A stretch of 35,354 nt of DNA from Escherichia coli (lineage in GTDB: Bacteria > Pseudomonadota > Gammaproteobacteria > Enterobacterales > Enterobacteriaceae), in assembly GCF_003334355.1 (NCBI RefSeq), contig NZ_QOWP01000035.1, one strand, 5' to 3'. Position numbers and translations under genes: made by a program. Under the pieces are notes generated by a model that was not told the origin of the DNA, made no database searches, and was given only the letters and a program-made list of their open reading frames with translations. The stretch's first letter is position 1; every line of letters begins with the position of its first letter. Below, in pieces: positions 30,058 to 35,354 of this stretch.

Positions 30058-31169
30058 TGTGCAGCTCCTGGTTTGGCCTCACCAATCACCACTTCATCGC
30101 CCGCTTCAAGCCCTTTGACAATCTCAACATCGGTATCGTTACGTGCGCCAATCGTCACTTCACGCTCGCGTGTTTCACCATTACGCAACAATTTGACTTT
30201 ATAACGATTATCGCCAACCGGATCGCCTAACGCCGACAGAGGGATCGTCAGCACATTTTTCACATCGGTGAGCTGAATATGCACTTGCGCAGTCATATCC
30301 AGCCGCAGCAAACCATTGGGGTTGGGGACTTCAAAACGGGCGTAATAGAAAATAGCGTCGTTAACCTTTTCCGGCGTCGGTAGTACATCCTTGATTTGCC
30401 CCTCGTAGCGCGTCAGTGGATCGCCAAGCACCGTAAACCAGGCTTTTTGCCCCGGCTTCAGGTGGATTACATCCGCTTCAGAAACCTGCGCTTTTACCAG
30501 CATGGTGCTCATATCTGCCAGCGTCAGAATGTTCGGTGCTTGTTGTGCGGCAATCACCGTCTGGCCTTGCAGAGTGGTGATTTGCGTGACTTCCCCGGCC
30601 ATCGGGGCAACGATGCGAGTGTAATCGAGATTGGTTTTAGCCGTATCGAGAGAAGCCTGATTGCGCTTGATTTGCGCGTCAATGGTGCCAATTTGCGCCT
30701 GTTTCACAGCCATCTCCGTCGCGGCGGTGTCGAGATCCTGCTGTGAAACCGCCTGCGTTTGTGCCAGACGTTGCTGACGGGAATACGTCACCCGCGCCAG
30801 TTTCAGCTCCGCTTCCGCCTGCTGCCGCTGCGCGCGTAGCTCCATCAGCGTTGCTTCGACCTCCTTGATCTGGTTTTCAGCCTGTTCAGGATCAATGACC
30901 CCTAAAAGCTGGTCTTTTTTTACTTTATCGCCAATCGCCACCGACAGCGTTTTCAACTGACCGCTGACCTGCGCGCCCACGTCAACCTTACGCAGCGCGT
31001 CCAGCTTTCCGGTCGCCAGCACGCTTTGCTGTAAATCACCGGGGCGCACAATCAGTGTCTGATAAGTCGGCACGGGTGCGTTAAGAATTCTCCATAACGT
31101 AATCAGTCCGGCGATGACTATCACCAGCGCAATAACGTAACGCTTCTTCACGGTTTTCCGCTTTTTCAT
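30054..31169 (-). CDS. macA: Macrolide export periplasmic adaptor (membrane fusion protein), 371 aa
   Basis: ORF track 30054..31196 (TTG-initiated) trimmed to ATG at 31169 ([15 protein letters not shown]); HlyD-family coiled-coil and lipoyl domains. Confidence 0.9.
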
Positions 31170-31283
31170 AAATATTCTGAATACTCCATATGCCAATCCG
31201 GGTCATTAACTTCAACGAAATATCAACAAACCCCTAAAATTTACGTTAGTAATCACACTATTGATGTTTGGTTAAGATACGCA

Positions 31284-32276
31284 ATGGTGAAATCGACGTC
31301 ATGTATAACCATTGATTTCATGAATATGTCGCAGCTAACTGAACGGACCTTTACGCCATCTGAATCTCTCAGCAGCCTGTCACTTTTTCTTAGTCTGGCA
31401 CGTGGACAGTGTCGGCCGGGTAAATTCTGGCATCGCCGTAGTTTTCGCCAGAAATTTTTGCTGCGCTCGTTGATTATGCCGCGTTTAAGCGTTGAGTGGA
31501 TGAACGAACTTTCCCACTGGCCTAATCTCAATGTATTGTTAACGCGCCAGCCGCGACTGCCTGTGCGTCTGCATCGCCCTTACCTTGCGGCGAATCTTAG
31601 CCGTAAGCAATTGCTGGAGGCGTTACGTTACCATTATGCGTTACTCCGCGAATGTATGTCGGCGGAAGAATTCAGCTTATATTTGAATACCCCCGGGCTG
31701 CAACTGGCGAAGCTGGAAGGCAAAAACGGCGAGCAGTTCACGCTTGAGCTGACCATGATGATCTCAATGGATAAAGAAGGTGACAGCACAATCCTGTTCC
31801 GCAACAGCGAAGGTATTCCTCTGGCAGAGATCACGTTTACCCTGTGTGAATATCAGGGGAAAAGAACGATGTTTATTGGCGGACTGCAAGGCGCAAAATG
31901 GGAAATTCCACATCAGGAAATCCAGAATGCGACGAAAGCCTGCCACGGGCTATTTCCCAAACGCCTCGTGATGGAAGCGGCCTGTCTGTTTGCCCAACGT
32001 TTGCAGGTAGAGCAGATTATTGCCGTCAGCAATGAAACGCATATTTACCGCAGCCTGCGTTATCGCGATAAAGAAGGCAAGATCCACGCTGATTACAACG
32101 CTTTCTGGGAATCGGTTGGCGGCGTATGTGATGCTGAACGCCATTACCGCCTTCCAGCACAGATAGCACGAAAAGAGATTGCCGAAATCGCCAGTAAAAA
32201 ACGGGCTGAATACCGTCGGCGCTATGAGATGCTCGACGCTATTCAGCCACAAATGGCCACGATGTTTCGCGGTTAA
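31284..32276 (+). CDS. ybjX: VirK-like DUF535-family protein, 330 aa
   Basis: ORF track; ATG at 31284; recognised as YbjX (VirK/SomA homolog); divergent from macAB. Confidence 0.85.
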   Translation: MVKSTSCITIDFMNMSQLTERTFTPSESLSSLSLFLSLARGQCRPGKFWHRRSFRQKFLLRSLIMPRLSVEWMNELSHWPNLNVLLTRQPRLPVRLHRPYLAANLSRKQLLEALRYHYALLRECMSAEEFSLYLNTPGLQLAKLEGKNGEQFTLELTMMISMDKEGDSTILFRNSEGIPLAEITFTLCEYQGKRTMFIGGLQGAKWEIPHQEIQNATKACHGLFPKRLVMEAACLFAQRLQVEQIIAVSNETHIYRSLRYRDKEGKIHADYNAFWESVGGVCDAERHYRLPAQIARKEIAEIASKKRAEYRRRYEMLDAIQPQMATMFRG

Positions 32277-33931
32277 TCCGCGCGACCGCGCGCCAGCCAC
32301 AGCACGCGTGAGAACATTTTTTTCAGCAGCGTCGGTACGGAGTCCACACCACGACGTCCTGCCTCCATTGCCACTTCAATGGCAAGATCGGGTTTGGAAG
32401 AGCGATGGATCGCTTTCGAGATAATTTTGCGTAGATTCATCGGTACATTTTCCGGGATTTGCGCCATGCGGTGGAACACATCGGAAAATCCCTGGCGATA
32501 CATAAAATGTTCCATATCCAGCGCCGGTAACGCCGTTAAATGTTCTCGTTCGGCTTCCCGATCGTTATTCAACAGGCTGCGTACCGTAGCGGCATATTTC
32601 TTCCCTGCTTCATCGCCATCGACCAGTACATGCCATTCAATCCCCATTCGGCGGGCAAATTTAACCAGTGGCTTTAGCCCGGACTGGGCAAACTCAATGA
32701 CCTTGATCCCTTCGGCATCAAAATGATGTCCGCACTGACGCGCCAGTTCATTGATAACCCAGGTTTCCGTTTCCCCTTCCACCAGCAACCAGCAGCGTGC
32801 AAACAGCGATGACGGACGGTTAAAACGAATGTGAAAGGATATGCGTCGGCTATCTTCGGTACTCAAGCCACTCGGCCCCAGACGCCAGGCGGCAACGCGC
32901 GAGGACTCACGTACCAGTCGGCAAACATGCTCTACCGGCGTTAACGAAAGCAACTCACCCGAGTTGGTGGTGGCAATGCGCTGCAATGGCAGAAGATTCA
33001 ACAGATGCCAGGCAACTGAAAGCATAATGGGGTGTAAACGGGTTTCTGGATCTTCGATCAGCAACAATGGACGGGCGTCTTTATCCAGTCGCAATGTGCC
33101 TTTTGCCTGCAACAAAGTAGCAAACAGGCCGAGCAAAATAACCCGATACGAGCGCCCACCAGGTCGGTCAATCATCCGGTTGATGATATCCAGATAGCGC
33201 CAGCTTCGTTGCTCATTGCTGGCTCGCCGCCGCATTAAACGATATCGCGCCTGTCCGGCCCCCTGCTCAGAGAAATAATGCTCAAGCAGCTGTACCATTG
33301 CGGAAAGTCCCTGACGAATCTGCCCATCAGAGAGATTTTGCGGATGTGAGGATAACTCACGGGCGAGGAAATCGAGCTGGCGCGCGGTGACTTCCACATT
33401 AGGGACATTTGGCACCGTGCCGTTACGAATACGGCGCATAAAACGGGCATCACGCAAGCGCAGCACCGGCATTAAACGCACCAGATGGCGTGCCTGATCG
33501 TTAATATCCTCGACATCAATCGGATGTCCGTCTTTATCGAGAAAACTGCGCAGTGTCATCACGCTGCCGTCTTCCGCACTCTCCCCTTCCAGACGATAAA
33601 AAATACGGTGATAGCCATCGGTGCATGGCGTCCAGCACGCTTCCAGCGGCCGATAACGGCGAACCCGATGTCGGCCTGGCAGCGATTCGCGGAAGGTCAA
33701 AATAATATGCAGATGATGTTCTCGCCCGTTGATATCTCCCGGCGGGAACCAGAAATCGTCGCGCTCAAAATGGTAGAGATCTGATTCTGGCGATAGCAGC
33801 AGAGTTAAGGCGTCCAGCAAGCTGGATTTACCCCACGCGTTCTCCCCAATCAGGACGTTGTTTTGTTCCAGCATCAACGACAAACGGTTGATACCGCGAA
33901 AACCCACAATTTCAACGCGCTCAAGAATCAT
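32273..33931 (-). CDS. ybjD: Stand-alone OLD-family ATPase/TOPRIM nuclease, 552 aa
   Basis: ORF track; N-terminal Walker A GENAWGKSS, Walker B-like LLLIEDPETRLHP, C-terminal TOPRIM acidic motifs (LLVEGETE, VLVDGDEAGKK); stop codon overlaps the ybjX stop. Confidence 0.9.
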   Translation of the reverse strand: MILERVEIVGFRGINRLSLMLEQNNVLIGENAWGKSSLLDALTLLLSPESDLYHFERDDFWFPPGDINGREHHLHIILTFRESLPGRHRVRRYRPLEACWTPCTDGYHRIFYRLEGESAEDGSVMTLRSFLDKDGHPIDVEDINDQARHLVRLMPVLRLRDARFMRRIRNGTVPNVPNVEVTARQLDFLARELSSHPQNLSDGQIRQGLSAMVQLLEHYFSEQGAGQARYRLMRRRASNEQRSWRYLDIINRMIDRPGGRSYRVILLGLFATLLQAKGTLRLDKDARPLLLIEDPETRLHPIMLSVAWHLLNLLPLQRIATTNSGELLSLTPVEHVCRLVRESSRVAAWRLGPSGLSTEDSRRISFHIRFNRPSSLFARCWLLVEGETETWVINELARQCGHHFDAEGIKVIEFAQSGLKPLVKFARRMGIEWHVLVDGDEAGKKYAATVRSLLNNDREAEREHLTALPALDMEHFMYRQGFSDVFHRMAQIPENVPMNLRKIISKAIHRSSKPDLAIEVAMEAGRRGVDSVPTLLKKMFSRVLWLARGRAD

Positions 33932-34356
33932 ATCCCCTCCAGAAATATGTGACTTATCCTTTACGCTGGCAGTATAACGGGAAAGGCCTTGCTAATACGT
34001 GATGACATCACATTTAAGCATGGCAAATGTCTGAAAAATGAGCGAATAATCGCGTTATACTCCCTCTTGCTGATAAGTCTGCAAAAACAACAAAATCAAA
34101 TAATTAGCATGATAAATTATTTTTTATTACGCCTAAAGGATTAAATCTTTTGCGTGCACTACACTGTCAATCAGACAAATGACTATATGGGGCAACCCGC
34201 TGTTGCCCTAAATCAAATTTACTGGATTTATTTATCTGGTGAATGACTCGCCTTCGTTTTTAAAATAGCCGCGCATTATTTCCGTCGTCACTTTTTTACG
34301 ACGACCCTATAAAACGACCATATTTTTCACAGGGTCAATTTTTAATTGAGGTGGAT

Positions 34357-35052
34357 ATGTTCAGAAAATTAGCAGCTGAATGTTTTGGTACTTTCTGGCT
34401 TGTTTTTGGTGGCTGTGGTAGTGCTGTACTGGCCGCAGGCTTCCCGGAATTAGGCATTGGTTTTGCCGGCGTGGCGTTGGCGTTCGGTCTGACCGTTCTG
34501 ACGATGGCCTTTGCTGTTGGTCATATTTCTGGTGGTCATTTTAACCCGGCGGTCACTATTGGTTTATGGGCTGGCGGACGTTTTCCGGCAAAAGAAGTCG
34601 TTGGCTACGTAATTGCCCAGGTTGTCGGCGGTATTGTTGCAGCGGCGCTGCTGTATTTAATTGCCAGTGGTAAAACGGGTTTTGACGCGGCAGCCAGCGG
34701 TTTTGCTTCTAACGGTTATGGCGAGCATTCACCAGGCGGTTATTCCATGCTTTCCGCGCTGGTAGTTGAACTGGTATTGAGTGCAGGTTTCCTGTTGGTG
34801 ATCCACGGCGCAACCGACAAATTCGCGCCGGCAGGTTTTGCGCCGATCGCTATTGGTCTGGCCTTAACCCTGATTCACTTAATTAGTATTCCGGTGACTA
34901 ACACTTCTGTTAACCCGGCGCGCAGCACCGCGGTTGCTATCTTCCAGGGCGGCTGGGCATTAGAACAACTGTGGTTCTTCTGGGTGGTGCCAATTGTCGG
35001 CGGCATTATCGGTGGTCTGATTTACCGGACCCTGCTGGAAAAGCGTGATTAA
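34357..35052 (+). CDS. aqpZ: Aquaporin Z, 231 aa
   Basis: ORF track 34351..35052 (GTG-initiated) trimmed to ATG at 34357 ([19 protein letters not shown]); two NPA motifs (HFNPAV, VNPAR). Confidence 0.95.
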
Positions 35053-35061
35053 TTAACGCAG

Positions 35062-35091
35062 AAGGCCTGGCGTAATGTCAGGCCTTTTTTT
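35062..35091 (+). terminator. Rho-independent terminator downstream of aqpZ
   Basis: aaggcctg-gcgtaatgt-caggcctt hairpin followed by T7. Confidence 0.8.
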
Positions 35092-35175
35092 AAGATGTTG
35101 TTATATGTTGATTCATCATCTTGTTGCGCTCCTTTCATGAGCTAAGCAACATATTGCCACTGGCGCAAGGAGCGC

Positions 35176-35207
35176 GCAGGGGGCGGCCAATCGCCGCCGC
35201 CCCCTGC
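35176..35207. repeat. GC-rich perfect 12-bp inverted repeat (gcagggggcggc / gccgccccctgc), 8-nt loop, inside a roughly 130-bp high-GC block
   Basis: Perfect inverted repeat seen directly; flanked by a second inverted repeat gcgctcctt (35126-35134) / aaggagcgc (35167-35175); base composition far above the window average; resembles E. coli GC-rich intergenic palindromic repeats (boxC-like), family not verified. Confidence 0.5.
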
Positions 35208-35354
35208 ACCCCCGGGCTCTGGCGAACAAAATCGCCGCTGCGCGGTGCCCTCGACTTATCCCTTACGGCTACCGGGTCGGGCGCGAGGTAACATATATGG
35301 ACGCTCCCGGAATGCAATGCTTTCTTCAGTTATGTAATAAAACGGGTAGGTGCA

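Follow-up and report, generated by a model that had tools for sequence, protein, structure and literature searches.

The Escherichia coli core gene ybjD: a stand-alone OLD-family ATPase/Toprim protein with a possible conserved cellular role

OLD-family proteins are usually taken as phage-defence effectors and have been divided into Class 1, comprising isolated genes, those of Escherichia coli included, and Class 2, whose members occur with a helicase (PMC6755086). The query with which these classes were defined was itself an E. coli protein, YbjD (b0876) (Schiltz et al., 2019; PMC6755086), and in phylogenies of the family Class 2 is nested within Class 1 (PMC12796447). Cran1 of Saccharolobus islandicus (OLD clade U11), an OLD ATPase-nickase, has a phylogeny that follows the species tree and appears not to be antiviral; its toxicity upon over-expression depends on the ATPase domain (PMC12796447). 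The subject here is ybjD, which is among the remaining uncharacterised genes of E. coli K-12, as it occurs in a 35,354-nucleotide stretch of E. coli DNA (contig NZ_QOWP01000035.1), referred to below as the window. Its coding sequence, 552 codons plus a stop, runs from ATG to TAA on the minus strand at 32273..33931 in the list of open reading frames (ORFs), and the RefSeq annotation reads "ybjD: ATP-dependent endonuclease".

A 2026 micropublication, in which the name oldB was proposed for ybjD, reported that the gene is transcribed in K-12 and that the Keio ybjD deletion plates like its parent in plaque assays (PMC13261556). When YbjD was induced with arabinose and challenged with all 68 BASEL phages, plaquing of Bas18 and Bas20 was reduced and the plaques of Bas64-68 were smaller. 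This restriction was seen at an inducer level without measurable growth defect, and YbjD was toxic at a tenfold higher level. Neither mutating the acidic residues of Toprim nor removing that whole domain altered the effect, and it disappeared when the ATPase half was deleted; the K35A variant retained it with increased toxicity. The toxicity, like the weak restriction, depends on the ATPase half and not on the Toprim domain or K35. A recBC(ts) strain, which P2 Old kills, is not killed by YbjD (all PMC13261556). Literature searches for DUF2813, b0876 and JW0860 returned nothing further. Both the OLD identity of ybjD and the first phage assays are therefore already published, and the evolutionary and structural context given here is incremental to them. 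The original prediction, made from the sequence of the window, had called the role of ybjD not established; this has been overtaken in part, as the identity was published in 2019 and the experiments it proposed, plaque assays among them, were largely done in 2026.

What the present analysis adds is evolutionary context: ybjD is strictly core and its locus is fixed, and the most constrained part of its protein is dispensable for the published phenotype. Of 5426 complete E. coli genomes, 5425 carry it full-length at 95% identity or more, nearly always as a single, chromosomal copy, and the window ORF matches the main cluster of E. coli YbjD proteins (P0001) with 100% identity. A species-level scan of one genome per GTDB species gave at least 494 loci encoding relatives, of which the best 80 were examined, and all 80 are from Enterobacterales. 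Identity of YbjD tracks taxonomy, from 97% in E. albertii through about 90% in Citrobacter and about 85% in Enterobacter and Klebsiella to about 80% in Buttiauxella and Cedecea and 64-68% in Pectobacterium, Serratia and Hafnia; Salmonella protein clusters stand at about 90%. Throughout Enterobacteriaceae the gene order is conserved, with aqpZ divergent from ybjD, ybjX (where present) convergent with it, and macA and macB following in the direction of ybjD. The order ybjD-ybjX-macAB is also found in Serratia. Pectobacterium and Mangrovibacter have ybjD flanked by hcp/hcr on one side, where aqpZ may or may not be present, and by clpA on the other, which is the same neighbourhood without macAB. 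Because the flanks change while the chromosomal place does not, ybjD is the stable element, beside which neighbours are gained and lost.

Inheritance and selection data point in the same direction. All-against-all protein distances of YbjD and MacB in 55 genomes (1485 pairs) were strongly correlated (Pearson r 0.89, slope 1.14), and none of 999 permutations in a Mantel test reached the observed value. A full-length match was obtained at 78 of the 80 species-level loci and internal stops at none. The ratio of nonsynonymous to synonymous substitution rates (dN/dS), calculated by the Nei-Gojobori method in comparisons with E. albertii, Citrobacter, Enterobacter and a divergent Escherichia, was 0.015-0.05 for the whole of ybjD and lowest, at 0.005-0.028, in its Toprim domain, with synonymous sites near saturation in the two distant comparisons. 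Under the same treatment aqpZ gave 0.02-0.06, macA and macB 0.02-0.09, and ybjX 0.05-0.22. A tblastn search of 50,697 phage records found as its sole match a partial fragment in a 2-kb unannotated record. In sum, ybjD is core and syntenic, is inherited vertically, evolves under strong purifying selection and is absent from phages. Defence genes do not usually bear this signature, which looks unlike that of a typical mobile one.

Matches to phage protein families were nevertheless noted in PHROGs, for YbjD (phrog_4747, E 4.6e-116) as well as for YbjX (phrog_35383, E 9e-152); both families probably arose from prophage predictions that took in host DNA. A phage or prophage origin, which these matches had suggested, was rejected, as no real phage record carries a homologue and the GC content of ybjD (53%) is near that of the window (51%). 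As a separate observation, the GTDB representative labelled E. coli SCPM-O-B-8794 (L001:6001-7656) differs from the window in ybjD with a dS of 0.47 at 99% protein identity. This strain is probably a divergent Escherichia lineage, since that value is far above the variation among complete E. coli genomes (at least 95% DNA identity).

More distant members of the family are also flanked by housekeeping genes, with neither a helicase nor a defence gene as neighbour. A Vibrio cluster lies near a ushA-type nucleotidase, folE, moeA and phosphotransferase system genes, the long form of the Anaerobiospirillum type is flanked by ddl and polA, and in two metagenomic contigs of unknown taxon family members stand near cysS and nrdAB in one and near lon and fabA in the other. 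Named representatives of the family come also from Motilimonas and Chitinilyticum. The DUF2813 clade is vertically inherited at a fixed position in Enterobacterales and situated among housekeeping genes in the other Proteobacteria whose loci were sampled. The Anaerobiospirillum-type proteins (P0162/P0284; L087:5001-8573) are of about 1190 amino acids, with an insert of about 220 residues after residue 68 and a C-terminal extension of about 490 residues that has no Pfam match; several further DUF2813 family matches are 1000-1900 amino acids long.

No UvrD/PcrA/Rep-like helicase, reverse transcriptase or AriB was found beside ybjD in the window or in the 80 related loci, and the contexts from Vibrio, Anaerobiospirillum and three metagenomic sequences likewise yielded no helicase or other partner, in agreement with the earlier statement that ybjD has no helicase partner. 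The adjacent ybjX was considered as a functional partner and rejected; about 15 of the 80 Enterobacterales loci, all with ybjD in place, lack it between that gene and macA, and its rate of evolution is several times higher, with 46-66% identity where YbjD retains 80-91%.

The assignment of YbjD as a stand-alone OLD-family ATPase/Toprim protein is secure. Pfam places DUF2813 over residues 1-375 (E 3.5e-160), with AAA_15 at the N-terminus, and OLD-like_TOPRIM over residues 376-440 (E 7.8e-16). The best PADLOC match is the GajA model PDLC00094 (E 6.8e-80), followed by further GajA models, and the Old model PDLC02358 matches at E 1.9e-24 with 84 bits, compared with 712 bits for P2 Old itself. No NCBIfam model names YbjD, and matches in that collection are confined to the N-terminal P-loop, with scores that fall well short of its curated cut-offs. 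An AlphaFold2 model built with 55 homologues as input has a mean predicted local distance difference test score of 87.5 and a predicted template modelling score of 0.86, and Foldseek matches it to GajA (E 1.7e-18). The family profile was also aligned to the Class 1 protein of Thermus scotoductus (Ts OLD, PDB 6P74; E 6.2e-21). The profile search and structure prediction for which the original prediction had asked thus returned both an ABC-like ATPase and a Toprim fold, as it had proposed, and the four motifs that it named (GENAWGKSS, LLLIEDPETRLHP, EGETE and DGDEAGKK) are all present at the residues given below.

Correspondence with Ts OLD extends to individual residues, and mutagenesis of the Ts OLD counterparts has established that ATP hydrolysis and DNA cleavage depend on them (PMC7049728). 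Conservation was counted in an alignment of 55 homologues at 28-54% identity, and all features that follow are on the minus strand. The N-terminal lobe of the ABC/SMC-type ATPase (residues 1-160; 33452..33931) carries the Walker A motif, or P-loop, GENAWGKSS (residues 29-37; 33821..33847), which follows the OLD-family pattern GxxxxGK[ST] and aligns with GPNGAGKTT of Ts OLD, so that K35 pairs with Ts K34. In this motif G29, E30 and G34 are invariant or nearly so. The C-terminal lobe (residues 286-375; 32807..33076) holds the Walker B motif and D-loop LLLIEDPETRLHP (residues 289-301; 33029..33067), which conforms to the family motif hhhhE-x-PE-xx-LHP. Within it E293 (Ts E276) is kept in 49 of the 55 homologues, E296 in 51 and H300 (Ts H283) in 54. 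At the H-loop position N323 stands opposite H310 of Ts OLD; family members have asparagine here in 35 cases, histidine in nine and glutamine in six, and asparagine has been described for many Class 1 homologues (PMC7049728).

Between the two lobes lies a helical insert (residues 161-285; 33077..33451), which is the least conserved segment, with 16% mean identity to YbjD. Four helices are predicted (177-195, 202-221, 237-255 and 259-277), at the position expected for the OLD dimerisation domain, with lower model confidence and low-confidence loops at 167-176 and 224-240. By analogy with Ts OLD and GajA (PMC7049728, PMC10568477), the insert is likely to be the dimerisation domain.

The Toprim core (residues 376-470; 32522..32806, matched in part by Pfam OLD-like_TOPRIM) is, in contrast, the most conserved segment, with 53% mean identity. 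Its motif EGETE (residues 385-389; 32765..32779) supplies E385, at the metal-A position (Ts E377), and E389, at the metal-B position (Ts D381); E385, E387 and E389 are invariant in all 55 homologues. In DGDEAGKK (residues 438-445; 32597..32620) the DxD metal-A ligands D438 (Ts D431) and D440 (Ts D433) are kept in 54 and 55 of 55 homologues, respectively, and with E385 they complete the E...DxD metal-A pattern of OLD Toprim domains. The residues D472-M-E474 (32510..32518), both acidic positions of which are invariant (55 of 55), are candidates for the second pair of metal-B ligands, an assignment made by the pattern x-x-E after DxD (S478/E480 in Ts OLD; T506/E508 in Burkholderia pseudomallei OLD, Bp OLD) rather than by residue-level superposition. 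The C-terminal helical region (residues 471-552; 32276..32521) also contains the invariant K513 (32393..32395), and it is here and in the Toprim region that invariant positions cluster (E385, E387, E389, D440, D472, E474 and K513).

By gene context YbjD belongs to Class 1, being a single gene flanked by aqpZ, ybjX and macAB, by hcp/hcr and clpA, or by housekeeping genes. The structural description of Class 1 derived from Ts OLD, in which a C-terminal helical domain is lacking and the catalytic arginine or lysine sits in a loop just after the metal-B ligands, does not describe it. Instead, the C-terminal region looks Class 2 (GajA)-like in the AlphaFold2 model, where E474 is followed by 78 residues with four confident helices. 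Furthermore, the invariant K513 lies 39 residues downstream of E474, whereas R487 of Ts OLD lies seven after E480 and K562 of Bp OLD is in a separate C-terminal helical domain; K513 may be the residue-level equivalent of this K562. The C-terminal region of Bp OLD aligns over 164 residues at 2.3 Å, compared with the 177 residues (376-552) of the YbjD C-terminal region, and the GajA profile PDLC00094 aligns up to its own last position (568/569). A Class 2-like C-terminus agrees with the nesting of Class 2 within Class 1 mentioned above.

YbjD consists of an SMC/Rad50-like ABC ATPase with an insert that is helical and probably serves dimerisation, then a Toprim nuclease domain with a putative full two-metal site (E385, D438 and D440; E389, D472 and E474) and the invariant K513 on a C-terminal helical extension. 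In the most likely working scheme, for which we infer oligomerisation, ATP gating, nuclease activity and a nucleic-acid substrate, an oligomer would bind nucleic acid through the module formed by the ATPase and its insert, nucleotide binding would keep it restrained, as in GajA, and two-metal catalysis at the Toprim site would then nick or cleave the bound nucleic acid.

No part of the protein is more constrained than the nuclease site, yet the published phage phenotype does not depend on it, which suggests that the native, selected function is a conserved cellular nucleic-acid transaction. Somewhat favoured, then, is the view that ybjD encodes a stand-alone OLD enzyme with a conserved cellular role of this kind, for which defence is at most conditional or secondary. 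A more specific proposal can be offered only tentatively: the DUF2813/YbjD clade may represent a vertically inherited, housekeeping-type OLD nuclease, a bacterial counterpart of Cran1 and not an immunity gene, in which the tightly constrained Toprim site serves a cellular chromosome or RNA transaction and the phage effect is a by-product that arises when the DNA-binding ATPase module is over-expressed.

Several observations weigh against a conserved cellular role. The gene is not essential, literature searches show no cellular phenotype for its deletion, and the literature yielded neither a nuclease or ATPase activity nor a substrate of YbjD. Some E. coli, e.g., CP027672.1 (L089:1419-3078), carry a natural +1 frameshift within Walker A, where an extra A in GAGAAC at codons 30/31 (about 33840 in the window) leaves ORFs of 34 and 525 amino acids; loss of ybjD is thus tolerated, in an allele that is in the minority (177 member sequences in cluster P0002 against 5302 for the intact form). 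Position 35 is lysine in 48 homologues, arginine in six and serine in one, while the Toprim acidic residues do not vary. These substitutions fit the published behaviour of K35A and, with the Walker A lysine replaced in seven of 55 homologues, ATP hydrolysis may not be central to the function of the family. Finally, the strong conservation could be compatible with defence, exerted against phages outside the BASEL set or under particular conditions.

The last point leads to the alternative that fares best, namely that YbjD is a dedicated single-gene anti-phage Class 1 OLD, like P2 Old or the Vibrio cholerae OLD. It would sense an infection and respond by nicking or degrading DNA of the phage or tRNA of the host, or by aborting the infection. 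In homology and fold it is akin to the defence proteins GajA, P2 Old, retron Eco8 OLD and AriA; restriction of Bas18, Bas20 and Bas64-68 occurs at a non-toxic inducer level (PMC13261556); and residence outside defence islands holds for Class 1 OLDs by definition (PMC10568477). Set against this, the knock-out plates like its parent and the induced phenotype is independent of the nuclease domain and the Walker A lysine (PMC13261556). Furthermore, the gene is core, syntenic, vertical and uniformly purified, with no sign of turnover, homologues are missing from the phage records searched, the match to the Old model is distant and recBC(ts) cells are not killed. A dedicated defence function is therefore rather unlikely. 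For the original prediction, which had made ybjD a candidate single-gene defence protein, what stands is the weak restriction of a few BASEL phages on induction; the lack of a phage phenotype in the knock-out and the dispensability of Toprim and K35 tell against the remainder.

In a further alternative the published anti-phage effect would be an over-expression artefact, in which an excess of the SMC/Rad50-like DNA-binding ATPase module mildly perturbs DNA transactions of host or phage and which would be uninformative on native function. The survival of the effect upon Toprim deletion and in K35A, its loss only without the ATPase half, its appearance only on induction and the toxicity at tenfold higher inducer would all be expected from such a perturbation (PMC13261556). 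However, the effect is seen where growth is not impaired and is specific to two phage groups among 68 phages (PMC13261556), and this explanation is considered improbable. Least probable by far is that ybjD is a decaying, functionless Gabija remnant, a GajA that lost GajB, as might be read from the GajA matches in PADLOC and structure searches, the Class 2-like C-terminus, the missing helicase gene and the frameshift allele, because the selection data contradict it (dN/dS lowest in Toprim, catalytic residues invariant, nearly all loci full-length and free of internal stops) and the gene is expressed in K-12 (PMC13261556) with conserved -10 and ribosome-binding sequences.

These expression signals lie in the 419-bp spacer (37% GC) between ybjD and aqpZ. 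A -10-like hexamer, TATACT, is located at 33971..33976 on the minus strand, 40 nt upstream of the ATG, and is kept in 12 of 14 Enterobacteriaceae genera; a Shine-Dalgarno sequence, GGAGG (33936..33940, minus strand), forms a conserved GGAG(G) block directly before the ATG in the same alignment (A2). The rest of the spacer could not be aligned between genera, which fits a separate, probably weak and constitutive promoter for ybjD, with TATACT as a putative element of it. A simple scan found no sigma-70 consensus promoter upstream of ybjD. About 70 nt upstream of the start there is also a 13-bp perfect palindrome, GTGATGACATCAC (33999..34011), found in E. coli and almost intact in E. albertii, which other genera do not conserve; conservation of the upstream CRP-like palindrome is limited to Escherichia. 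A stem-loop, GGGCAAC-ccgct-GTTGCCC, without Rfam match, occupies 34190..34208 in the divergent spacer, and an Rfam scan of 31000..35354 for regulatory RNA in the flanks gave nothing at E <= 0.1.

The window covers the E. coli macAB-ybjX-ybjD-aqpZ region. The ORF coordinates confirm the neighbours first described, with aqpZ on the plus strand at 34351..35052, divergent from ybjD, and ybjX (VirK/DUF535) convergent with it, also on the plus strand, at 31284..32276. The TAA of ybjX (32274-32276) overlaps the stop of ybjD (32273-32275) in the shared sequence TTAA, and the convergent transcript overlap of the two genes has been catalogued as an excludon (PMC12288877). A weak terminator-like hairpin with a T-run at 32200..32217 (minus strand), about 55 nt beyond the ybjD stop and within ybjX near its 3' end, is a possible end point of the ybjD transcript in this overlap.

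P2 Old has the same family membership and domain order as YbjD, with a profile-profile match of 98% probability over residues 3-452; however, the two proteins share 19% identity, and YbjD displays none of the features that mark the P2 Old subfamily (close Old profile match, phage-borne location and recBC killing), being chromosomal, distant from the Old model and not lethal to recBC(ts) cells. Ts OLD is 21% identical, has a short tail where YbjD has about 80 residues of helices following its final metal ligand, and carries histidine rather than asparagine in the H-loop. GajA of Gabija (Class 2; Bacillus cereus GajA and Bp OLD) is 13-17% identical; its profiles match YbjD, but GajA is mobile and has GajB alongside, while ybjD is a core gene and no GajB/UvrD-like helicase is adjacent to it in any locus examined. 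Nor does ybjD display what is expected of a defence gene, i.e., protection at native levels and a patchy, mobile distribution, as it is core and syntenic and its knock-out resembles the parent in plaque assays that stayed within the BASEL phages (PMC13261556). The evolutionary context suggests that standard defence-finding tools would overlook the DUF2813 clade, that the label of immune gene may be wrong and that the real function of ybjD has not yet been seen. In Enterobacterales the evolutionary signature of YbjD is instead like that of Cran1. Cran1 is essential and cell-cycle regulated, whereas ybjD is dispensable in K-12. The same evolutionary argument led Yang et al. to seek, and to find, a non-defence role for Cran1 of the Sulfolobales (PMC12796447), and if a cellular role holds true for ybjD, the gene would provide a bacterial case of OLD activity outside immunity.

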